A stretch of 32,371 bases of DNA from Deltaproteobacteria bacterium (GCA_026988585.1 JALSKY010000293.1:1-32371); one strand, 5' to 3'; counted from the first letter of the stretch, positions 2 to 10,288 are shown. The notes: generated by a model from the sequence alone, not told the origin. Program-made: numbers and translations.

Positions 2-148
2 GAAATCCAGAAACAGCGCGCAGCCGTGCTTGAATCAGCTTTCAAAGAACACAAAAAACGGTTCAAAGGCAAGATGCCGGAACCATTACCGCTGCCCAAG
101 GCAGCATGGATAAACAAACCAAAGGGTAGCCAGGACACGCTACTCTAA
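2..148 (+). mobile_element. 3' end of a DDE (rve/integrase-core type) transposase ORF, IS3/IS481-like, truncated by the window edge
   Basis: Frame 2 is open from the window edge to TAA at 146-148. It reads EIQKQRAAVLESAFKEHKKRFKGKMPEPLPLPKAAWINKPKGSQDTLL. The ...RF.G..P.P..LP.A.WINKP tail matches the C-terminus of rve-type IS transposases as I remember them. I could not delimit the terminal inverted repeat of the element. Confidence 0.45.
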
Positions 149-414: not shown

Positions 415-1986
415 ATGTATCTGCTGCACCACTTTCTGGAAGAGTCTGCCCGAAGGCATCCGCACAAGATTGCGCTTGTTTGCGGTGATGAGCGCCTAAG
501 CTATGTTGAAGTGGACACCATGGCTGACCGGGTATCACAGGCCTTGCTTGACATGGGAGTCCAGCGTGGAGACAGGGTTGCCATCTACATGGACAACTCC
601 ACGGAGACTGTTATCGCCATGTTTGGCACCCTCAAGGCCGGTGGTATTTTCGTAATGCTGAACCCCGGCCTGAAATCCAGAAAGCTTGGCTATATCCTTC
701 AACACTCAGGCGCCAAGGTCTTGCTGGCCAGCCAAACCGGTGCCCGTATCGTCAATGATATCCTTGATGCCGGACTGAATGAGCTTGGACATATCATCTG
801 GAAGGGCAGAATTCCCCTTGTGGGAAATAAAGGGGTTTGCCAGTTGCTTTGGGATGAGCTTCTTGAAAAAAGACCGGGTGCGCCTGTGTCAGGCTCTGCG
901 GGATTAGTGGACATGAATCCATGCATAGACCTTGACCTGGCTACTATCATATATACCTCCGGCTCAACGGCTGATCCCAAGGGTGTAATGTGCGCCCATT
1001 ACAGTATGATCGCTGCGGCCAGGAGCATCACCTCATATCTCCATATCTCAGAGGAAGATATCATCCTCTGCTGCCTGCCCCTATCTTTTGATTATGGCCT
1101 TTATCAGGTCCTGATGGCCTTTCTTGCCGGGGCAACAGTCATTCTTGAAAAGTCCTTTGCCTATCCATATCCTGTCATGGAGCGGGTGGCCCAGGAGGGT
1201 GTGACCGGGTTTCCCCTCGTGCCCACAATGGCGGCCATCTTGATCCAGATGGAAAGGATCTCAGAGCTTGATTTCAGCAGGTTGCGCTACATAACCAACG
1301 CCGCTGCTGCCCTTCCTGCCAGTCACATCAAAAGACTTCAGTCCCTGTTTCCTGGGGTGGAGATATTTTCCATGTACGGGCTTACGGAATGTAAGCGGGT
1401 TTCATATCTGCCGCCTGAATATATAGACAAGTACCCTGACTCCGTTGGCATTCCAATTCCGAATGAAGAGGTTTGGATAGTTGATGAGCAGGGTCGCAGG
1501 CTGCCTCCGGGTGAAGTTGGGGAGCTTGTGGTGCGCGGCTCCAATGTGATGCAGGGCTATTGGCGTGATCCAGACGAGACAGCTCTTCGGTTCAAAGAGG
1601 TCCCTGGACAAAGGGGCTACATTCTCTACACTGGAGACCTGTTCCGCCAGGATAGTAATGGCCTTCTGTATTTTATCTCTCGAAAGGATGACCTGATAAA
1701 GAGCAGGGCAGAGCGTATCAGCCCAAAGGAGATAGAGGCCTGTCTCCATGATCTGGAAGGGGTGGCGGAGGCGGCTGTAATAGGGGTACCTGATGAGGTC
1801 TTGGGTCAGGCCATAAAGGCCTTTGTGGTCTTGCAACAAGGCAGCAGCCATACTGCTGAATCCATCTTGAAACATTGCCGCAGACACCTTGAGCCATTCA
1901 AGGTTCCCAGCCAGGTTGAACTGATGGACTCCTTGCCAAAATTGCCAAGTGGCAAGGTTGACAAAAGAAGGTTGGCAGACAGTTGA
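415..1986 (+). CDS. AMP-dependent acyl-CoA synthetase/ligase (ANL adenylate-forming superfamily)
   Basis: 523-aa ORF with an AAGGAG RBS at 403-408. It carries the AMP-binding signature IIYTSGSTADPKGV, a GELVVRG...GYW core and a C-terminal LPKLPSGKVDKRRL. The N-terminus LLHHFLEESARRHPHKIALV resembles acyl-CoA ligases I recall from exosortase/EPS loci, which I could not verify. Confidence 0.9.
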   Translation: MYLLHHFLEESARRHPHKIALVCGDERLSYVEVDTMADRVSQALLDMGVQRGDRVAIYMDNSTETVIAMFGTLKAGGIFVMLNPGLKSRKLGYILQHSGAKVLLASQTGARIVNDILDAGLNELGHIIWKGRIPLVGNKGVCQLLWDELLEKRPGAPVSGSAGLVDMNPCIDLDLATIIYTSGSTADPKGVMCAHYSMIAAARSITSYLHISEEDIILCCLPLSFDYGLYQVLMAFLAGATVILEKSFAYPYPVMERVAQEGVTGFPLVPTMAAILIQMERISELDFSRLRYITNAAAALPASHIKRLQSLFPGVEIFSMYGLTECKRVSYLPPEYIDKYPDSVGIPIPNEEVWIVDEQGRRLPPGEVGELVVRGSNVMQGYWRDPDETALRFKEVPGQRGYILYTGDLFRQDSNGLLYFISRKDDLIKSRAERISPKEIEACLHDLEGVAEAAVIGVPDEVLGQAIKAFVVLQQGSSHTAESILKHCRRHLEPFKVPSQVELMDSLPKLPSGKVDKRRLADS

Positions 1987-2005
1987 AACCGAAAAAGGCC
2001 AGCCC

Positions 2006-3127
2006 TCATTCCTGTTTCATGGCATCTGCCATGGAGGTGGCATAGTCTATGTAATCCTGGATGAACCTGCCGGAAATCACATCGGACACAGGAAAGGAGA
2101 TGTCCCTGTCAAGACGGCAACCGCCCATGATTTCAAATAGCTCCTGAGAAAGGCAAAAGAGCCTCTTTCTGTATTCATCCATCTCTATGGCATCTTCTGG
2201 CACACCCTCTGCCCTGCACCTCAATGGCCTGAAGTGGAAGATCCCACATCTGGAATCGAATACCAGCGGGCAAACAAAGCCCTCCTTCTTCCAAACCTCG
2301 GCCAGGAAGGCCGCTACCTGGGCTGGATCAGGCCCGTATATGTCCACGGCATGGGCTCTGGCCTTTTCGAGCCTGCTGGATATCCTGGATGCCCTTCTTG
2401 CTGCAAGAAACCGTCTCATCATAGAGAGCTGCTGCGGAATCTTGTGCTGGATATATATGGCCTCTATCAGGCCCACCTCAAAATAGCCCTTGCAGCACTC
2501 TACACTATCCATGCCGCACCGGACAAAAGTCCTTTGCTGCTGAGTCCTGAAAAGTTCCAGGTCTGCCTCCCTGACAATCCTTTCATAACGGGTCAGGTAT
2601 GGAGATATGTCTATGATGTTGTCGCTGTTTATGGCCTTTTGTGCTATGGGCGGGGCATGGTAAGGTTTGTCAGCCCCAGCGGCCCTTTTTTCATAGCGCC
2701 TGAGCAGCTGCCACTGGCTGAAGCTGGTGGGACAGGCCCTGGTGCCCTTGAGCTCTTTGGATGCCGCCTTAAGCCCAAGCCCATGCCTGATGAGATAGGC
2801 TGTAACAAAGGTGCCAGTTCTTCCTATACCGTGTCTGCAGTGGATCAGGACCTTCTTGCCCTTTGAGATGCGCTTGTCCACCCAGTCCAAGGCCCTTTCC
2901 ATCTCTTCCATGTCAGGTACTGACTCGTCAGCAACAGGCAGGAAATAGACATCCAGGCCGGATTCGGCCTCGATCAGGTGCAGGTCGCAGAACTCTCCAC
3001 ACAGGTTTACCACGGCATCTATGCCCTGTTTCTTCAACTCTTCTATGGCATTGAAGGACAAAGGGGCACAACCTACGGCAATCTCCGGGGTAACCCAATT
3101 TATCTCACGGCCTGCCTCTGACGCCAC
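2006..3127 (-). CDS. Dual-specificity (Cys-based) phosphatase domain fused to a YkgJ/COG0727-like Cys-cluster domain
   Basis: 373-aa ORF with a GTG start and an AAGGAG RBS 7 nt upstream. The N-terminal ~150 aa carry the HCX5R(T) P-loop VLIHCRHGIGRTGT (Cys97 codon at 2837-2839) and an upstream acidic loop PVADESVP. The C-terminal region (aa ~195-345) has RCGMDSVECC and CPLVFDSRCGIFHFRPLRCR. These resemble the CxxCxxCC ... CPFL..C.IY..RP..CR pattern of YkgJ-family proteins, with the first motif degenerate. Confidence 0.8.
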   Translation of the reverse strand: MASEAGREINWVTPEIAVGCAPLSFNAIEELKKQGIDAVVNLCGEFCDLHLIEAESGLDVYFLPVADESVPDMEEMERALDWVDKRISKGKKVLIHCRHGIGRTGTFVTAYLIRHGLGLKAASKELKGTRACPTSFSQWQLLRRYEKRAAGADKPYHAPPIAQKAINSDNIIDISPYLTRYERIVREADLELFRTQQQRTFVRCGMDSVECCKGYFEVGLIEAIYIQHKIPQQLSMMRRFLAARRASRISSRLEKARAHAVDIYGPDPAQVAAFLAEVWKKEGFVCPLVFDSRCGIFHFRPLRCRAEGVPEDAIEMDEYRKRLFCLSQELFEIMGGCRLDRDISFPVSDVISGRFIQDYIDYATSMADAMKQE

Positions 3128-3168
3128 ACCTTGCTCCTTTCATCCCAAATTACCGTCTGCATAATTTG

Positions 3169-3198
3169 GCGTGATCAGACACTGATCCGCTTTATTTT
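3169..3198 (+). other. Stem-loop (GCGTGATCAG-aca-CTGATC-CGC) followed by TTTATTTT on the plus strand, between two minus-strand genes
   Basis: Read directly from the sequence. It is a 9-bp stem with one bulge and a 3-nt loop at 3169-3190, with a T-rich run at 3191-3198. The terminator-like polarity is on the plus strand, but both flanking genes are on the minus strand. Confidence 0.35.
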
Positions 3199-3252
3199 CA
3201 CGGCAATAGTACGGCATGGATGTACGAGTCTCATGAAAGTCTGGAGCCATAT

Positions 3253-5877
3253 CTACGGTCCATCTCCATCTTGTAAAGGGGTTTTATGATACTGACCTTG
3301 GATACCCTGGAAAAAGGCCTTTGTGTGCTGCTCAACCATCTCCATGTCTTTAAGGTAGATGTCCATGAGCTGTGTTACAGCAGCAAGCCTGCCTATCTGT
3401 TCCAGAAGATCCTCTATGGTATGCCTGTCCCCTTCTGTAAATCTTGCATCTATCATGTCTGCCCTCTGTCTTACAGAGAAACCGAGCCGGACAAGGATCC
3501 TGCGTATAAACTCGGCCCTTAACATCCTTCCTTCTGCTCTGCCGCCCCCGCCTGCAAAACGGAACAGTATGTAGTTTTTGACCTGCTCCTCACTGCATAG
3601 GGTGTCCAGGACCACGAAGTGATAGCCAAACCTCATGTTCATGTTTAGATAGTCCTCTGCTATCACTGCATAAGTGGCCAGGGCGGCGGAGTCCTTTCTG
3701 CCTATGCCTCCAGCCAGCGCTATGGTATCAAAGCTCCTCCAGTCAAAACGGCTCAATTCTTCCTGGACTGCACGGTCCTGGTCCAGGCCGCAAAGGAGGG
3801 CCTTAAGCGGTCGGCACGCCACCTGTTCCAGGGTGACCAGGCCCTTGTCCCCAGCCTCTGGCCTGATCCCTCCTCCAATATCCACCACGAAGATCTGTAT
3901 GGGGACGTTTGAGAGTGCTAATTTTCGGCCCCTGGCCTTTCCCCTGCCTATCCCTCCCGTGTGGAACATGAGTCTTACCGCCCTTTCATGGCAGAACCTG
4001 ACTATGTCATGGATGGTGCGGCACCCTTCTGGCCTGAAGTTTTCAGACTCTGGATCTGTGAGGTTGAGTGGCATTATGAAGGAGAGCATCATCTCAAGCC
4101 TGCGGAAAAAAGGTGTGTGCACTCCTATCCCCCTGTTTTCTGCCTTGATGCTGTCTGTTTGTACCAGCCCCTCTATAACCACTCCTTCCTCAGCAAACAT
4201 GGTTACCTCCTGTCCGGGCTTAAGCCTCCTTGTGGCATCCTTGGTGTTGACCAGTACAGGTACCTTGAACTCCCTTGCAACCAATGCCAGGTGGCCGGCA
4301 GGGCTTCCAGAATCGGTTATGATGCCTGAAACCCTGTCCAACAAAACCGCATACTGGGGCAGAGCGCTTTTGGCCACAACTATGGCTCCCTGGGGTACCT
4401 GAGGCGATGCAGCCGTACTATCATCCTGAGACAGCAGATGTACCCGGCCTGCGCCAACTCCACCGGAAGCGCACTGACCGCCGGATATGAGGATGCGCGC
4501 CGCCTCAGGGATGCGGTTGGAACTGCCGTTTCTTCTTTGAGCTCCACTGACAGCTAACTGTTCTGAAGGGGCGGAAGGCCCCAGTGGCCTTGCCTGCAGG
4601 ATGTAGAGCCTTCCGTCCTGGTCGATGCACCACTCTATGTCCTGGGGTGTGGCAAAGTGGTTTTCTATCTCCTGGGCCCACGTTGCAAGGGTCAGGGCCT
4701 GGTGGTCATCTATGGCGAGGTGTACAGGGGCTGCTTTTTGTCCAGCAGAGATCCCTTTTGGATGGGTCTCTTTTCCTGGGACCTTTTCAACGATCCTTGG
4801 CTGTCCTCCCTTTTCTACCACAAAGATATCGGCAGATACCCTGCCGCCTACGATCTCTTCACCTGCCCCTGGTGCTGCGTATATGATGAGCCGTCTGCTG
4901 CCATGGCCTTTTTGACCTTGCTGTACTGAAGAGTGGATAACCCCGCTGGCCTTGGCCCTGATCTGCTTGCATATGAGCACTGCCATTGGAGTCTCTTCAT
5001 CTGAAAGGCCTTGGGTTATCCTGTAAAACAGTGCCCTTTCACTGTATTTGCTGGCAATTACACTCCTGTACGCATATTCCAGGCTGCCTTTGTCAACATT
5101 GAGCTCACTGTGGTACTGGCCGGCAAAGGTCAGTTGGCCATCTTCGGAAACGGCACTGCTCCTAAGGGCTACAAGCAGCCCGTGTTGCCCTTTTTCCTGC
5201 CCTGAAAGCCCTGTCCATGCACTCTCAAGGGCCTCCTGGATCTCTGAGGGAAGCCTGGCTGCAAACATGGCCGCCATGAGCCTTTTCGAACATTGGTTAA
5301 GGCCATTGGCATCATGGATATCCAGCCTTGAAAGCTCTTCATCTATAGGGCCCCGCAGCCCGTTTTCTTCTATTAACCTTGAAAAGGCCCTGGTGGTGAT
5401 GACAAAGCTGTCCGGCACCGGCAGGCCGAGATCCCTCTTCAGTATGGCAAGGTTGGCTGCCTTCCCCCCTGCTACCAAGAGGCCATCCTGTTTTGGGATC
5501 TTGTCAATGGGGAGCAGATAGGGCACAGACCTTTCCGCCAGGCCTGCTACGGGCATCCATTCTATGATGCGGATTACGTATTTGTGGATCTGTTTGTATA
5601 TATCTTCAAGGGCGCTGTAAGATGCCGGATCCATCTCCCTTAATGCCTTTATCATGCCAAGGATGCAGACTGAGAGCCTGCGGTATCGTTCTTTTAGGGC
5701 AGCATGGTCCAACAGGCGCTTTCGAAACAGTATGTCCTCGAGGTCAGCCATGAGTTCATGGGCCCTCTTGTCATGCTCCAGAAGGGTCTTGAAGGCCCTG
5801 TACCGCTCCTGGAGCAGGGCCTCTGGGGCAAAGATCTCAAGGGACAGGTGTTTGAATAGGTTTTTTAGCAACTGCAT
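3253..5877 (-). CDS. PEP-synthase/pyruvate-phosphate-dikinase-like enzyme (PPDK_N ATP-grasp plus swivel phospho-His domain) with uncharacterised N- and C-terminal domains
   Basis: 874-aa ORF. Residues ~125-432 contain GGKAANLAILK, ALRSSAVSEDG and DIEWCIDQDGRLYILQARPL, which mark a PPDK_N-type nucleotide-binding domain. Residues ~465-570 contain GGVGAGRVH...IVVAKSALPQYAVLLDRVSGIITDSGSPAGHLALVAREFKVPVLV, a PEP-utilizer mobile domain with His529 at codon 4291-4293. In aa ~585-874 I did not recognise the canonical PEP/pyruvate TIM-barrel motifs. Confidence 0.85.
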   Translation of the reverse strand: MQLLKNLFKHLSLEIFAPEALLQERYRAFKTLLEHDKRAHELMADLEDILFRKRLLDHAALKERYRRLSVCILGMIKALREMDPASYSALEDIYKQIHKYVIRIIEWMPVAGLAERSVPYLLPIDKIPKQDGLLVAGGKAANLAILKRDLGLPVPDSFVITTRAFSRLIEENGLRGPIDEELSRLDIHDANGLNQCSKRLMAAMFAARLPSEIQEALESAWTGLSGQEKGQHGLLVALRSSAVSEDGQLTFAGQYHSELNVDKGSLEYAYRSVIASKYSERALFYRITQGLSDEETPMAVLICKQIRAKASGVIHSSVQQGQKGHGSRRLIIYAAPGAGEEIVGGRVSADIFVVEKGGQPRIVEKVPGKETHPKGISAGQKAAPVHLAIDDHQALTLATWAQEIENHFATPQDIEWCIDQDGRLYILQARPLGPSAPSEQLAVSGAQRRNGSSNRIPEAARILISGGQCASGGVGAGRVHLLSQDDSTAASPQVPQGAIVVAKSALPQYAVLLDRVSGIITDSGSPAGHLALVAREFKVPVLVNTKDATRRLKPGQEVTMFAEEGVVIEGLVQTDSIKAENRGIGVHTPFFRRLEMMLSFIMPLNLTDPESENFRPEGCRTIHDIVRFCHERAVRLMFHTGGIGRGKARGRKLALSNVPIQIFVVDIGGGIRPEAGDKGLVTLEQVACRPLKALLCGLDQDRAVQEELSRFDWRSFDTIALAGGIGRKDSAALATYAVIAEDYLNMNMRFGYHFVVLDTLCSEEQVKNYILFRFAGGGGRAEGRMLRAEFIRRILVRLGFSVRQRADMIDARFTEGDRHTIEDLLEQIGRLAAVTQLMDIYLKDMEMVEQHTKAFFQGIQGQYHKTPLQDGDGP

Positions 5878-6121
5878 ACAACCTTTGGCAGAGAGACAGG
5901 CCAGAGAACCTTATCCTTGAAACGGTTTGGAAATGGGCTGTCCATGGAATAAAAATGCATATTGCTGGATGCCAGGGCAGTCGCCGAGCCTGTTGTCAAC
6001 TCTGGCCTTTACTGGCGCTTTAGATTACCAGAGCTTTCAGATATCATAACTGCTACCTGCCTTGGCCCTCTTTAATCTTGACGCAGCTAAAAAGGTAAAA
6101 ATGCTACTGGATGATTTTAGA

Positions 6122-6160
6122 TAAAGGGCTAAGAACGCCTGAAAGAATCACAGCCCTTTA
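6122..6160. repeat. Perfect 9-bp inverted repeat TAAAGGGCT-N21-AGCCCTTTA in the 420-bp gap upstream of the dikinase-like gene
   Basis: Read directly from the sequence. The arms are at 6122-6130 and 6152-6160. There is no adjacent U-tract on either strand, so it is not a canonical terminator. Confidence 0.4.
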
Positions 6161-6298
6161 CGGATTGAGATCGGCATAGAGAAAGACCAAACTGATGCCA
6201 ATGTCCCCAGGCCTCTGAATGAATAATAAACAGCTCCTGGGTTGTTTTGCCACCTTAACTCACTGTTTCTCAGGCGAATTGAGGCGGAAAATCTCTTT

Positions 6299-6547
6299 TC
6301 ACACAATGTCATCCATGCTTACAACTGTGCAGGTCATGGTGTGCTGGATAGCATCTATTGTCTGAAGTTTCTTCATGACCATCTTTGATAGAGAATCATG
6401 GGATTCCGTCTCTACCTGGGCGATAATATCATAAGGTCCCATAATGACATCGAGATGGGTTACCTCTGGCATCTGCTTCAACATATCCACTACATCAGCA
6501 GTCTTTCCAATCCTGGTATTTATGAGAATATAGGCCTTCAGGGACAT
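6299..6547 (-). CDS. Stand-alone Lrp/AsnC-type ligand-binding (RAM) domain protein with no HTH domain
   Basis: 82-aa ORF with a strong RBS AAAGGAGAGG (6551-6560, minus strand) just upstream of the ATG. KAYILINTRIGKTADVVDMLKQMPEVTHLDVIMGPYDIIAQVE fits the AsnC_trans_reg/RAM fold signature. The ORF is too short to include a DNA-binding domain. Confidence 0.75.
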   Translation of the reverse strand: MSLKAYILINTRIGKTADVVDMLKQMPEVTHLDVIMGPYDIIAQVETESHDSLSKMVMKKLQTIDAIQHTMTCTVVSMDDIV

Positions 6548-6760
6548 AATCCTCTCCTTTCACATAGTTGAAATCAATGGGATCAAACTTCTCTATCAGA
6601 GTCCTGTTCTGCTGGCTCAATAACGGGATGATCCATCAGGAACTGGACTGCTTGAGCCTTCTTTCTGCCCATAAATCTATGAGAAACCTGGCTACAAGCA
6701 CCCCGCCCAGCAACAAAAGAAAACCGCCACTCCGTAATCTGCTCACACCATCCACCCTGT

Positions 6761-7549
6761 TTAGTTCTGATCCTGGGCTGCGGAAACGGAACACCCAAGG
6801 CAGCCACCTGAAAAGAGCTTCTTCTTCACCCAGCGCATGGCATAAGCCAGAAGCTCCTCTTCATCACTTGATATCCTCTCGATGATCTCTTCATCTTCCA
6901 TATATCTTTCAAGATTGGGACCTTCAAGAAAGTTGATCCGAAAGCTGTCAATATCATAGCAGCCCATGTAGAAGATATCTATCTGATCTGCAGTGAGATG
7001 TTCAATCCCTGCCTCCTGTTTGGCCTGATATAGCTCACCAAAGATATCATTCATCTCGTTGTACTTGACAACTCCCTCATTCTCTTTCCATTCTCTGATT
7101 GTCCACTCTTTTCCATCCTTGAATCCGCGACAGTCCGGCTCCCTGACAATGTAATAGAACTCCTCCACCCCCTCTATTTCCGTTGAACGCCTGGCCATTC
7201 GGGCCAATGGATAGGTGCGGCATGCACCAGGCCGATCCTCATAGATGGTGCAACCCTTGTTTTCCTCCAGAAATGGACATTTCAGATAGGGATCTTCCAT
7301 CTTCAGCATAACGACAGGAAGTCCTGAGCCAAATCCTACATGCACGGATGTATATTTTTTAAGGAATTCAGAGCTGGTCATCCCAAGCCTGTTCTTGATC
7401 CTCAATATATCATAAGGCATCAACACCAGATTCAGGTCATAACAGCAGCGTGTAAAACAGCTCTTTTCAGGGGTACAGGAAAAACAGAAAGTATCATCAT
7501 CCTGAAGTGCCTTGGAATCGTCTATATAAGGTTCAGGTCCGTTGGGCAT
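6761..7549 (-). CDS. YkgJ-family cysteine-cluster protein (COG0727, putative Fe-S/Zn-binding, function unknown)
   Basis: 262-aa ORF with an AAGGAG RBS upstream. It has the classic pattern FCFSCTPEKSCFTRCC followed by KCPFLEENKGCTIYEDRPGACRTYP. Confidence 0.85.
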   Translation of the reverse strand: MPNGPEPYIDDSKALQDDDTFCFSCTPEKSCFTRCCYDLNLVLMPYDILRIKNRLGMTSSEFLKKYTSVHVGFGSGLPVVMLKMEDPYLKCPFLEENKGCTIYEDRPGACRTYPLARMARRSTEIEGVEEFYYIVREPDCRGFKDGKEWTIREWKENEGVVKYNEMNDIFGELYQAKQEAGIEHLTADQIDIFYMGCYDIDSFRINFLEGPNLERYMEDEEIIERISSDEEELLAYAMRWVKKKLFSGGCLGCSVSAAQDQN

Positions 7550-7588
7550 CTGATTATCAGCTCCTTTTCAAAAAAACTCTTCTCGTGA

Positions 7589-8329
7589 TTATAAAATGGC
7601 CATAAAACTTGCTCCAAGCCTGATGGCAAAATGTCCTTCAAGGCCTGACCTAAGATAAATATCATCTGCTATCCTCGTCAATATGGTGGTAAAAATCACC
7701 TCATACCCCATATTGATATAGCCGCCTCTCCCAGCTTCATTGGCATAAAATACAGGTGTTCCATCAGGAAATCTTCTTGATTTTAATCGCCATTTCGCAA
7801 CTTGAAAATTGTGATAAAGCCTCTGAAGCTGTTCTACAGGTATCTGGCATCCGGTTACGAAAACACCATCTGTAACGGAATAGGCCTCATCAAGACTCTT
7901 CTTGAGACCCATTATCAGCAAAAAAATCCTGTCGTGATAACATGGCTCAGGTGAGAATGCCATGTCGAGAAGCCTATGAGACGGCAGAGTCAGGACAGGA
8001 CACCCCATATCCTCAATGGCTGACAGATTCTGATACCATCTGGCCTGTCTCGCAGAGTATCCGGGATTGAAGAGAAAGTCCATCTTCTCCATTCTGCTCC
8101 GCTGATCAGGTTCATAACAGGGATTTTTCCGGTAGAGCCTTTGCATCATATCACGCAGTAATGTGAGGTTTGCCCTGTAGTGATAACTCATTATCTTTAC
8201 GTCTGGAGGGGAGATGGTTCGCCCAAGAGGGCTCTTAGAAAAGGAGGAGCATCCTCCAAGAATGGCAGAAACCATTGCAGAGATGAGCCAGGAGACCATG
8301 ATATAACTGGCTGATTTATGAAATTTCAT
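7589..8329 (-). CDS. Putative lipoprotein of unknown function
   Basis: 246-aa ORF. The N-terminal hydrophobic segment ends in the lipobox-like ILGGCSS. I recognised no family motif. It starts 39 bp upstream of the YkgJ gene on the same strand. Confidence 0.6.
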   Translation of the reverse strand: MKFHKSASYIMVSWLISAMVSAILGGCSSFSKSPLGRTISPPDVKIMSYHYRANLTLLRDMMQRLYRKNPCYEPDQRSRMEKMDFLFNPGYSARQARWYQNLSAIEDMGCPVLTLPSHRLLDMAFSPEPCYHDRIFLLIMGLKKSLDEAYSVTDGVFVTGCQIPVEQLQRLYHNFQVAKWRLKSRRFPDGTPVFYANEAGRGGYINMGYEVIFTTILTRIADDIYLRSGLEGHFAIRLGASFMAIL

Positions 8330-8467
8330 CTGGTTTTAACCCTTTCATGCCGAAATGGCCATATAGCTGAAAGTCTCATCAATTGCTCCATGAGAGATAG
8401 AAACCTTGCCCCGCTCTTTCCAGCCAATCAGATTCCGCTATTCAATCAATTCGGCTCTGTCCTGTTA

Positions 8468-9634
8468 TTAAATAAAATGACACATCACTGAATTGAACAA
8501 CCGCCTACCTCTCTTGGTCAGGGCGATCCTGCCGTCCTCTATGTGAAGGTGGCCGAACTCTGCAAACTGTTTCAACATATCGCCATAATACTCCACAGGA
8601 TCAACAGAAAACCTTTCCTGAAACCACTCCAGAGAGAGACCATTAACCAATCTCATTCCCATTACAAAGGCTTCCCTGAACCTGGCCTCTTCATCCAACC
8701 TTTCTATCTCAGCAACTGGCAGCCTTTCCTGCTGAAGTGACCTGAAATAGAGTGACATTTCCATAGTGTTTGCGCGTCTGATACCGGCTATGTGTGAATG
8801 GGCACCGATCCCCACCCCTACATACTCCCCAGCCAGCCAGTAATTTATGTTATGGCGGGACTGCTTTCCGGGCCTGGAAAAATTTGAAATCTCATAATGG
8901 TCGAACCCTGATGAAACCAGCTTAGTCTCAACCAGGTCCATCAGTTCTACCGCCTGATCCTGGGACAGTTGGGAAAATTTTCCGCTGCGGATCTGCCGGT
9001 GCAGAGAAGTTCCTTCCTCGACAGTGAGCTCATAACAGGAGAGATGATCAGGATGTAACCCTAAAACGGCATCAAGTGTGTTGTTTAGCCACTCTCTATC
9101 CTGTCCAACAATACCGTATATGATATCCATCCCAAGATTCCATACCCCTGCTCTCCGTGCCATTTCACATGCAGCTCCAACCTGATCCACAGAATGGATC
9201 CGGCCCAGAGTCTTCAACCCCCTTTCACTCATATCCTGAACACCAAGACTTAACCTGTTTCCTCCAGATTCCATAAAGGCATCAATGAATTCCAGAGATA
9301 GGGATTCCGGATTTGCCTCTACCGTGATCTCTTTGACCGGAGCGAAATGAGTGTCTGGAGAGACTAACTCCGAAAGTCTGGCAGCCAGTTCCTTTCCCTT
9401 GGAGATGGTACTGGACAAATCCTTTCCTGAAAGCAGGGATGGCGTGCCCCCGCCGATATATATGGTATCCACCGGCGTGGAAAGAGTAGGCATGGAATTG
9501 GAAAGGAGATCCATCTCATGCAAGATGGCATGAACATAACTCTCTTTCAGCTCTTCATTGTGAAGCATGGAGACAAAACTGCAATAGGTGCATCTTTTTC
9601 TGCAGAAGGGTATATGAATATAGATGCCAGACAC
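8468..9634 (-). CDS. hemW: Radical SAM heme chaperone HemW (HemN-like, oxygen-independent coproporphyrinogen III oxidase family)
   Basis: 388-aa ORF with a GTG start. It has the N-terminal IYIHIPFCRKRCTYCSF radical-SAM CX3CX2C motif, GGGTPS, and the HNINYW motif typical of HemW/HemN-like proteins. Confidence 0.9.
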   Translation of the reverse strand: MSGIYIHIPFCRKRCTYCSFVSMLHNEELKESYVHAILHEMDLLSNSMPTLSTPVDTIYIGGGTPSLLSGKDLSSTISKGKELAARLSELVSPDTHFAPVKEITVEANPESLSLEFIDAFMESGGNRLSLGVQDMSERGLKTLGRIHSVDQVGAACEMARRAGVWNLGMDIIYGIVGQDREWLNNTLDAVLGLHPDHLSCYELTVEEGTSLHRQIRSGKFSQLSQDQAVELMDLVETKLVSSGFDHYEISNFSRPGKQSRHNINYWLAGEYVGVGIGAHSHIAGIRRANTMEMSLYFRSLQQERLPVAEIERLDEEARFREAFVMGMRLVNGLSLEWFQERFSVDPVEYYGDMLKQFAEFGHLHIEDGRIALTKRGRRLFNSVMCHFI

Positions 9635-9703
9635 TTTTCTGTTTCAGTTCAGGCCTGTCGAGGTTATGAGAAAAAACTGAATTCTGATGCCAGGATTCCT
9701 CTT

Positions 9704-10288
9704 CTACCTCTTTTTCAGGCCGTTGCAGAACAAAAAGATCTCCACGCTTTCAGACCGTGAGCTTTTGGGTTTGAAAAACTTTACTGACTGGAAGATGGTA
9801 GATAGCCATCTCTTCAGATCAGGAAGGTCCTCACCCTGAAATACCTTGCAGTAAAAGACGCCGTTATCCTTGAGCAGGGCCCTTGCAATCTCTGCAGCCT
9901 GTCGAGCCAGGTCCATGGACCGGTAATGGTCCAGATCCTTTCTACCTGTAGTTGCAGGGGCCATATCACTGACCACTGCATCGAATCGACCAAACTCGTC
10001 CCTGATTTCCCTGTAATCCAGCTCAAACACGTCATGCTTCAAAAAATGGATATTCTCGCCGGAAATTCTCAAGGGATTCAGATCAACCGAGACAACTGTT
10101 CCACCTTTCTTGACTATCTCCCCAAGATATTTACTCCATGATCCAGGGGAAGCACCAAGGTCCATCACTATATGGCCAGGTTTGAGAAAACGGAAACGCT
10201 GTTGGGCCTCCTTCAGCTTGTAAACGCTCCTGGCGGGATACCCTTCCTTCTTTGCCAAACGGAAATAATGGTCTTGAATCTCTTTCAT
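9704..10288 (-). CDS. rlmE: 23S rRNA (uridine2552-2'-O)-methyltransferase RlmE/FtsJ
   Basis: 194-aa ORF. YFRLAKKEGYPARSVYKLKE...LKPGHIVMDLGASPGSWSKY and VVSDMAP...G are typical of the FtsJ/RlmE SAM-dependent methyltransferase. Confidence 0.9.
   Translation of the reverse strand: MKEIQDHYFRLAKKEGYPARSVYKLKEAQQRFRFLKPGHIVMDLGASPGSWSKYLGEIVKKGGTVVSVDLNPLRISGENIHFLKHDVFELDYREIRDEFGRFDAVVSDMAPATTGRKDLDHYRSMDLARQAAEIARALLKDNGVFYCKVFQGEDLPDLKRWLSTIFQSVKFFKPKSSRSESVEIFLFCNGLKKR

Follow-up and report, generated by a model that had tools for sequence, protein, structure and literature searches.

The closest described counterpart of the genes analyzed in this work is the nitrate cluster of two model sulfate reducers, that is, Dde_0597-0605 of Desulfovibrio alaskensis G20 and DVU0245-0251 of D. 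vulgaris Hildenborough (Korte et al. 2014, Front Microbiol 5:153, PMC4001038). The cluster embeds genes for a DUF169 protein, a TauE permease, a hypothetical protein (588 bp, ~195 aa), a PtxB-like binding protein, a PAS/HAMP histidine kinase (DVU0248, listed as a pseudogene in D. vulgaris), a receiver (360 bp, 119 aa), a dikinase-like protein (2235 bp) and a "protein-tyrosine/dual-specificity phosphatase" (1110 bp) (PMC4001038). In D. vulgaris, growth at 100 mM nitrate is not impaired when a transposon sits in DVU0246 (dikinase), DVU0247 (receiver), DVU0250 or DVU0251 (TauE), and disruption of the dikinase, receiver, hypothetical or TauE gene makes the cells insensitive to nitrate at this concentration; the DVU0245 (phosphatase) mutant is still nitrate-sensitive, with a fitness of -6.04, opposite in sign to that of the kinase mutant (PMC4001038). 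In G20 all the cluster mutants show positive fitness, the phosphatase mutant like the kinase one, and they are mildly sick on thiosulfate (PMC4001038). The explanation put forward by Korte et al. was a leaky thiosulfate transporter, with no assignment of the native function (PMC4001038); the published work on the cluster is genetic only (nitrate resistance and a mild thiosulfate defect), and our search of the literature on DVU0245, DVU0246 and Dde_0604 found no follow-up. In this work we analyze a stretch of 32,371 nucleotides from a Deltaproteobacteria bacterium (GCA_026988585.1, JALSKY010000293.1:1-32371; hereinafter the window), whose positions 2,006 to 7,549 include a dikinase-like gene followed by a phosphatase gene, and we show that these two genes represent a conserved, sometimes fused unit with both catalytic centres intact.

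From the viewpoint of their chemistry, the two proteins can be compared with other known systems. The dikinase-like protein shares with phosphoenolpyruvate (PEP) synthase and PPDK (TIGR01418; PF01326, PF00391 and PF02896) the order of an ATP-grasp domain followed by a swivel-His domain, with the catalytic residues kept. The same ATP-grasp and swivel-His chemistry is directed towards a non-pyruvate hydroxyl acceptor in rifampin phosphotransferase, YvkC, phenylphosphate synthase and HpeHI. The same logic as in the window, i.e., a His-swivel dikinase opposed by a phosphatase of the dual-specificity phosphatase (DSP) fold, is found in plant glucan-water dikinase (GWD) with SEX4/LSF2 and laforin. 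Lastly, HprK/P, AceK and the PPDK regulatory protein hold the kinase and the phosphatase for one target together or on one chain; the logic is alike, but their folds are unrelated to those of the window pair and their targets are known.

An earlier note, drawn from this sequence alone, had described four co-directional minus-strand genes as a single candidate phospho-transfer module. The open reading frame (ORF) call located these genes at 2006-3127, 3253-5877, 6299-6547 and 6761-7549, all on the minus strand, with 125 bp between the phosphatase and dikinase genes and 420 bp between the dikinase gene and the next one, which encodes a RAM domain; together with Pfam, it confirmed both the ORFs and their main domains. 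The dikinase-like and phosphatase genes are composed as follows (AF2, AlphaFold2; PTP, protein-tyrosine phosphatase).

3253 to 5877, minus strand: 874-aa PEP synthase-like enzyme of the His-swivel dikinase type (ORF call, Pfam, NCBIfam, AF2)
5503 to 5877, minus strand: N-terminal helical extension, aa 1-125; no Pfam match, four helices in the AF2 model
4576 to 5472, minus strand: ATP-grasp nucleotide-binding domain, aa 136-434; PPDK_N, PF01326, E 1.9e-70
4183 to 4395, minus strand: swivel phosphohistidine domain, aa 495-565; PEP-utilizers mobile domain, PF00391, E 8.3e-19
3256 to 4125, minus strand: family-specific C-terminal domain (C-domain), aa 585-874; no Pfam or Protein Data Bank (PDB) relative, alpha+beta in the AF2 model
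3128 to 3252, minus strand: spacer of 125 bp from the dikinase stop to the phosphatase start; coding strand free of terminator-like sites
2006 to 3127, minus strand: Cys-dependent DSP/PTP phosphatase of 373 aa with a fused six-Cys domain (ORF call, Pfam)
2684 to 3109, minus strand: DSP/PTP catalytic domain, aa 7-148; PF22785, PF22784 and PF00782 above cut-off
2009 to 2545, minus strand: C-terminal Cys-cluster domain, aa ~195-373; invariant Cys, distantly CxxCxxCC-like

The strongest evidence for a functional link between the two proteins comes from the organization of their genes in other genomes. A scan of species-representative genomes with an alignment of the C-domain matched at least 600 stretches, at least 553 of which encode a relative, and neighbourhoods were counted in the best 80 loci of these (at least) 553, nearly all of them from Desulfobacterota. 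In 74 of these 80 loci the dikinase gene is directly followed, on the same strand and 12-368 bp further on, by the DSP gene, and the Cys domain is detectable in 65; in some relatives the two genes overlap. The reverse look-up gave the same picture, the dikinase being directly upstream of the DSP-Cys homologue in all four loci sampled. Moreover, two fusion proteins of 1252 and 1205 aa (P0221 and P0261) carry the complete succession of dikinase, linker, DSP and Cys domain on one chain, and in another locus (L084) a low-molecular-weight (LMW) PTP gene lies 2 bp upstream of a lectin-tailed member of the dikinase family. The coupling of a dikinase with a Cys-based phosphatase, already suggested in the earlier note, is thus sustained by conserved adjacency, by the reverse look-up, by two fusions and by the replacement of one phosphatase by another, so that the idea of a write/erase phosphorylation pair appears well supported; we also infer that the two window genes are probably co-transcribed.

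On the whole, we assign a probability of roughly 0.6 to the reading that the two window genes encode an antagonistic kinase/phosphatase pair belonging to a family of which, judging from composition, DVU0246 and DVU0245 are the Desulfovibrio representatives. By composition, order and gene sizes, the window pair corresponds to these two genes (Dde_0604/0605 in G20), the last two of the nitrate cluster: in both cases a protein with PPDK_N and mobile domains is followed by a PTP/DSP protein of ~369 aa. A bridge is offered by a cultured relative, Pseudodesulfovibrio piezophilus, which has the same gene order as the nitrate cluster and whose two proteins align end to end with those of the window (36% identity over 855 aa for the dikinase-like protein and 37% over 358 aa for the phosphatase). 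The neighbours reported for the nitrate cluster (TauE, the ~195-aa hypothetical protein, the PtxB/PhnD-like protein, the PAS/HAMP kinase and the 119-aa receiver) also match those that we recovered independently by synteny. Since the pair is the core of a genetically known cluster, the statement of the earlier note that no bacterial system of this composition had been described does not stand.

Some relatives depart from the common organization. A distant, lectin-tailed subfamily of ~1035-1085 aa (P0029, P0260, P0273, P0289 and others) has an additional C-terminal tail of ~200 aa. Laminin_G_3 remains below threshold in this tail, and so does the Glyco_hydro_59_C lectin domain, with 26.3 bits where 27 are required. 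The neighbours of this subfamily, known from single examples, are the LMW-PTP of L084, a PHP-like protein and a Metallophos protein in L088, and no phosphatase in L086. In the closest relative of the window locus (L081) the neighbours are a PEP carboxylase and an Exo_endo_phos protein. A 427-aa protein from a JGI metagenome (P0024) consists of the dikinase swivel domain and a C-domain cut after RFSGGG...LRADFLNQ, after which comes the HTH_8 tail of a sigma54 activator. The phosphatase and the larger part of the regulator seem to have been lost by deletion or in an assembly chimera, and the protein represents independent evidence of their adjacency. In a metagenome-assembled genome of Desulfovibrionaceae (L071, 10950-11927) two ORFs of 211 and 98 aa apparently take the place of an intact phosphatase gene, pointing to a frameshift or a pseudogene; together with the DVU0248 pseudogene listed by Korte et al., this indicates that parts of the cluster decay in some lineages.

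The 874-aa protein matches only PPDK_N and PEP-utilizers in Pfam, leaving ~125 N-terminal and ~300 C-terminal residues unmatched. In agreement with the PEP-synthase-like enzyme with a swivel His that had been read at 3253-5877, both matched domains keep their catalytic residues: K139, R239, E415, Q428 and R430 of the ATP-grasp domain are invariant in 47 full-length relatives, and so is, in 47 out of 47, His529, which lies in GSPAGHLALVARE and whose codon (4291-4293) was checked. The N-terminal extension, whose helices span residues 2-16, 18-51, 58-82 and 89-105 in the AF2 model, was detected by tblastn in 71 of the 80 loci; it is possible that it acts as a regulatory or docking module. The full-length AF2 model (pLDDT 84.3, pTM 0.81) retrieved PEP synthase (2ols), rifampin phosphotransferase (5hv1), HpeI (9goj) and PPDK with Foldseek, all matches running through the ATP-grasp and His domains only.

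The remaining part of the protein, the C-domain, is what sets the family apart. None of 16 members gave a Pfam match to this domain at E<=1, its profile found no match among PDB sequences (best E 0.13), and the stand-alone model found none in the PDB with Foldseek at E<=0.001. The AF2 model shows an alpha+beta domain with antiparallel sheets, which is not a TIM barrel or (beta/alpha)8 fold. Among the 47 relatives, H623, D624, R627, H630, E631, H753, G776, G777, R787 and D839 are invariant, and besides this His/Asp/Glu/Arg constellation the domain has a GGGG loop. A HMMER search of 1.84 billion representatives found the domain in 1113 representative clusters at 50% identity, nearly always at residues ~550-850 of a protein of 820-870 aa. 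We presume that it represents the acceptor-binding and phosphotransfer site.

These data bear on the name under which the family circulates. Many database entries call its members PEP synthase (JGI and NCBI use "pyruvate, water dikinase" for many relatives), and the top NCBIfam matches of the window enzyme are indeed PEP synthase models. However, the scores lie far under the curated cut-offs and the matches end at the swivel domain: TIGR01418 (PEP_synth) gives 263.6 bits against 739.75 and covers model positions 11-466 of 784, and NF005057 gives 274.3 bits against 598 and stops near model position 470; NCBIfam has no specific model for either of the two large proteins. PEP-utilizers_C (PF02896), the TIM barrel that binds PEP/pyruvate, was not found by Pfam in the 874-aa protein, where an unrelated alpha+beta domain of 290 aa, resembling nothing solved, takes its place, and the 125-aa N-terminal helical extension is an addition with respect to PEP synthase and PPDK. 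A bona fide PEP synthase with a normal barrel, a possibility considered in the earlier note, is thus contradicted by Pfam, NCBIfam, AF2 and Foldseek alike, and we regard it as virtually untenable.

As regards the phosphatase, the catalytic domain scores 69.5 bits with PF22785, 63.7 with PF22784 and 59 with PF00782. The HC97RHGIGR103TG loop (H96, C97, R103), D67 and Q138 are invariant in 40 relatives, and the codons of Cys97 (2837-2839), Arg103 (2819-2821) and Asp67 (2927-2929) were checked. Its nearest solved relatives are archaeal-type PTPs (ShufPTP, Tk-PTP, SsoPTP) and DUSP23, with E from 1e-22 to 6e-10. With these archaeal PTPs and human DUSP23/VHZ the window phosphatase has in common the HCxxGxGRTG loop and the general-acid Asp; unlike them, it carries a six-Cys domain of ~180 aa, and its gene stands beside, or is fused to, a dikinase. 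The relatives form a family of full-length DSP-Cys fusions of ~350-400 aa, in which C204, C211, C212, C286, C294 and C304, as well as R300-P301 of the RPxxCR motif, are invariant (40 relatives). This pattern of cysteines points to a putative metal or Fe-S module, perhaps a redox one, and some relatives bear the JGI name [quoted passage not shown]. Concerning the DSP-YkgJ fusion that had been proposed for this protein, the DSP part was found by three Pfam families and the YkgJ-like part is weak and sub-threshold. PF03692 did not match the C-terminal half of the window protein even at E<=1, and it matched 11 of the 40 relatives, all below threshold (best E 0.0023); hhalign aligned the tail with the stand-alone YkgJ protein of the window over 32 columns (motif CP...C..Y..RP..CR, 56% probability). 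The kinship with PF03692 thus seems real at the motif level but weak, so that "YkgJ-like" is to be read as a distant resemblance.

A further question concerns the partners of the pair. Clustering of all the ORFs of the 80 loci revealed that its recurrent neighbours are two-component proteins, and the unit is usually tied to a two-component system containing a receiver and to permeases for sulfur oxyanions. In a first arrangement (Desulfobacterales and others) a 119-aa receiver, an sCache/PAS histidine kinase and a PhnD/PtxB-like binding protein are convergent to the pair; in L082 and L040 the receiver, kinase and binding-protein genes come after the pair and are co-directional with it, and in L085 and P. 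piezophilus they precede it. The trio or pentad is kept in three different gene arrangements. In a second organization (Desulfobulbales, ~20 loci) a sigma54 regulator of the REC-AAA-HTH8 type starts from -13 to +20 bp of the DSP stop, and in L110 and L111 there is a minimal trio of dikinase, DSP and receiver without histidine kinase or binding protein. A receiver-domain gene lies within ~3.3 kb in 47 of the 58 loci with at least 3 kb downstream, and in 25 of those 47 it is the orthologous 119-aa receiver (at least 57% identity). This single-domain protein, which is 63-78% identical across loci and possesses the canonical D8, D9, D52, T80, Y99 and K102, is the most constant third partner of the pair. 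The argument for this link lies in orthology and in an adjacency kept across rearrangements, not in the comparison of near and far receivers, in which the enrichment is modest (1.5-fold, Poisson P 0.003), two-component genes being present in the distal flanks as well.

Other frequent neighbours are a TauE permease with a ~200-aa membrane protein, and a molybdopterin oxidoreductase with a 4Fe-4S protein. In L085 (465-2393) a YeeE/YedE-type Sulf_transp permease stands where other loci have TauE, and together with TusA and Se_S_carrier genes it lies just upstream of the operon of binding protein, kinase, receiver and fusion; this neighbourhood ties the variant to thiosulfate or sulfur trafficking. 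ORF cluster 8 (L002, L007, L010, L012, L013, L015 and others) groups membrane proteins of ~155-225 aa with a signal peptide, a conserved H-x-x-PEGLYVHQ-x-AH motif and no Pfam match. Their genes recur either directly by the pair or in the interval from the sigma54 regulator to the next histidine kinase. In Dissulfuribacter thermophilus a "PEP synthase", DITHS69_1988, filed under carbon metabolism in a proteomics study, is up 3.4 log2-fold in thiosulfate disproportionation and adjoins a TauE-associated membrane protein and TauE, which are co-induced (PMC13490349); this adjacency suggests that it is probably a member of the dikinase-like family and hence misclassified.

The antagonistic pair might work in the following way. 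Judging from the intact invariant residues of the PEP synthase/PPDK type, the ATP-grasp domain would phosphorylate the swivel residue His529 with ATP, and the His domain would then carry the phosphoryl group to an acceptor held by the C-terminal domain; the phosphatase of the PTP fold, with Cys97, Arg103 and Asp67, would take the phosphate off, and the six-Cys domain would probably gate its activity by means of a metal or Fe-S centre that it binds. The pair would, in most genomes, be wired to a PtxB/PhnD-like binding protein, an sCache/PAS kinase, and the 119-aa receiver or a sigma54 regulator. The receiver, a protein devoid of an output domain, might switch the dikinase, and the phosphorylation state set by the pair might in turn control the expression or the activity of the permease system. 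Going further, we can tentatively speculate, as a possibility that falls well short of even odds, that a dikinase with a new acceptor domain is the effector of a single-domain response regulator and that, in combination with a phosphatase gated by redox state or by a metal, it makes up a new phospho-signalling switch controlling the uptake of sulfur oxyanions (thiosulfate) in sulfate reducers, via protein O-phosphorylation or a phosphorylated second messenger.

Several observations weigh against an antagonistic pair acting in signalling. The family appears to be known from genes and mutant phenotypes alone, and the equivalence with DVU0245/0246 is drawn from annotation, composition, order and gene lengths and from Desulfovibrionaceae homologues. 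Antagonism is seen in one of the two Desulfovibrio species only, the phosphatase mutant of G20 being positive like the kinase one. The distal parts of the loci, too, often contain receiver genes (0.74 versus 1.12 per 10 kb). The window itself has the pair only: a C-domain protein without PEP-utilizers_C is followed immediately downstream, on the same strand, by a ~370-aa PTP/DSP, but, unlike in the nitrate cluster, no receiver, histidine kinase, binding protein or TauE is adjacent to it or present within the 32 kb, nor is a sigma54 regulator, so that its signalling context is extrapolated from the relatives. The invariant polar pocket of the C-domain has rather the look of a site for small molecules. 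Lastly, all the ATP-grasp/His-swivel dikinases that have been characterised act, to our knowledge, on small molecules or glucans, and this speaks against a protein as the target.

In an alternative reading, the enzyme is a metabolic small-molecule dikinase that activates a hydroxylated, possibly phenolic, metabolite by phosphorylation, in the manner of phenylphosphate synthase, HpeHI, YvkC or rifampin phosphotransferase, the phosphatase being a partner for salvage, proofreading or detoxification with no role in signalling. Besides the polar pocket and the Gly-rich loop of the C-domain, this idea is in agreement with the structural neighbours of the enzyme (PEP synthase, rifampin phosphotransferase and HpeI), with the established ability of PTP-fold and LMW-PTP enzymes to take aryl phosphates well, and with the other phosphoesterases located by family members (Metallophos and PHP-like in L088, Exo_endo_phos in L081). 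The likeness to rifampin phosphotransferase stops at the chemistry, since in that enzyme the order is ATP-grasp, substrate domain and His, whereas the window enzyme has its His domain in the middle (aa 495-565) and the acceptor domain at the C-terminal end; NF041857 scores 182 bits against a cut-off of 999, and the acceptor domains of the small-molecule PEP synthase-like enzymes have no detectable similarity with the C-domain. Against the metabolic alternative, a kinase fused to the phosphatase for its own product would represent a futile cycle in a catabolic pathway, no pathway genes (e.g., carboxylases) are conserved by the pair, its most conserved third partner is a receiver protein, and the phenotype of the kinase mutants is common to the receiver, binding-protein and permease mutants. 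Hence, we consider a purely metabolic role rather unlikely. As for the acceptor of the antagonistic pair, precedent and the polar pocket favour a small molecule, and the arguments for a regulatory target come from the signalling context, the fusion and the phenotypes in common; we lean towards a protein, at odds not much better than even.

The analogy with GWD and SEX4/LSF2, put forward in the earlier note, would make the pair a bacterial system for the reversible phosphorylation of glycogen or of another polyglucan. The write/erase logic holds, the eraser is of the DSP type, and the subfamily of ~1050 aa has a weak ConA-like/lectin-like C-terminal tail. Nevertheless, Pfam detected no carbohydrate-binding module (CBM) in either window protein, and the conserved neighbours are two-component and permease genes, with no glycogen genes or other glucan-metabolism context among them. 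The domain order is also different, being ATP-grasp, His and acceptor, as in PEP synthase, and not CBM, His and nucleotide domain, as established for GWD; the DSP belongs to another subfamily than SEX4, LSF2 and laforin, since it is nearest to archaeal PTPs and DUSP23, and no glucan phosphatases are among the 60 PDB matches listed. The analogy thus survives as regards the logic and fails as regards CBM, gene context and domain order, and we judge a polyglucan substrate very improbable.

The two genes upstream of the dikinase belong to a different context, which involves the following features.

6299 to 6547, minus strand: stand-alone RAM protein of 82 aa without helix-turn-helix; AsnC_trans_reg, PF01037, E 8.7e-14, aa 7-77
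6761 to 7549, minus strand: stand-alone YkgJ/CxxCxxCC protein; PF03692, 46.1 bits against a cut-off of 23
7589 to 8329, minus strand: 246-aa protein beginning with signal peptide and lipobox-like ...ILGGC; unmatched in Pfam, NCBIfam and PADLOC

Pfam confirmed the identity of the RAM protein and of the YkgJ protein. According to the four-gene scheme, YkgJ, RAM, dikinase and the DSP-YkgJ fusion would form one module with RAM as a small-molecule sensor, which fits the location of the co-directional genes inside 5.5 kb and the CP...C..Y..RP..CR motif common to YkgJ and the phosphatase tail. Nonetheless, no RAM or stand-alone YkgJ homologue was found beside the dikinase in any of the 80 loci, nor at the closest relative L081, and RAM and the dikinase are 420 bp apart. 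When the YkgJ protein was used to scan metagenomes, relatives at 73-85% identity were retrieved: YkgJ is followed by RAM in 10 loci, in eight of which the 246-aa protein lies upstream, with HemW and RlmE further upstream where the contig reaches far enough. None of these ten loci contains a dikinase or DSP homologue, and in both loci with downstream ORFs listed the genes past RAM are on the opposite strand. In the window the same block, RlmE/FtsJ, HemN-like radical-SAM (HemW-type), 246-aa protein, YkgJ and RAM, spans 6299-10288 on the minus strand, its order and orientation being kept in the relatives. This synteny in the absence of the dikinase indicates that YkgJ and RAM are the tail of a different conserved block. 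Thus, the co-localization that the earlier note had proposed to test across genomes was found for the DSP (74/80) and not for YkgJ and RAM (0/80), and we consider the four-gene module extremely unlikely. Since RAM consistently comes after YkgJ, these two may be a functional pair of their own; the 246-aa protein, 44-62% identical in relatives, is probably a conserved lipoprotein, as suggested by its predicted N-terminal features.

In the window, then, the dikinase-DSP pair is alone in a housekeeping neighbourhood, and RAM and YkgJ are bystanders. The remainder encodes MutL, MiaA, PurL, CoaE, a XerC/D-like recombinase and a P-type ATPase, besides the HemN-like/HemW and RlmE-like proteins. The insertion sequence (IS) remnant that had been placed next to the block was not recovered, no transposase-like ORF or family match being present in 1-420 or in the intergenic gaps, and the small ORFs in 1-420 and 5878-6760 have no family match. 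The IS call may have its source in the following feature.

2 to 148, plus strand: C-terminal end of a gene, 48 aa, cut by the window edge (…KKRFKGKMPEPLPLPKAAWINKPKGSQDTLL); no family match

Searches for regulatory signals were negative. The sigma54 pattern TGGCAC-N5-TTGCW gave 23 matches against 20.4 expected and none in 5878-6298, the sigma54-like site at 3234-3249, with two mismatches, is no better than chance, and scans for sigma70 promoters and terminators over 1800-8600 did not exceed the shuffled expectation. No Rfam family and no tRNA was detected anywhere in the window. None of the five proteins submitted to PADLOC matched a defence system, so that the "polymorphic toxin" and "Swiss Army Knife" labels of the DSP imply no conflict system here.

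The locus itself is no discovery, the window being one more member without signalling neighbours, while its biochemistry is probably new. What this analysis adds is the separation of the true two-gene unit from its bystanders, the evidence from fusions and from a phosphatase swap for the coupling of kinase and phosphatase, the recognition of a single-domain receiver as the most constant third partner, and the definition of a C-domain without known relatives as the likely acceptor site. The family defined by this domain is large (at least 553 matched stretches and 1113 clusters at 50% identity), mostly from Desulfobacterota, and its members are routinely misnamed PEP synthase. Mutants of D. vulgaris and D. 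alaskensis exist, so that the biochemistry can be tested directly in both of these model sulfate reducers, in which the cluster has strong fitness phenotypes, and these phenotypes bear on the nitrate treatment of oil-field souring.

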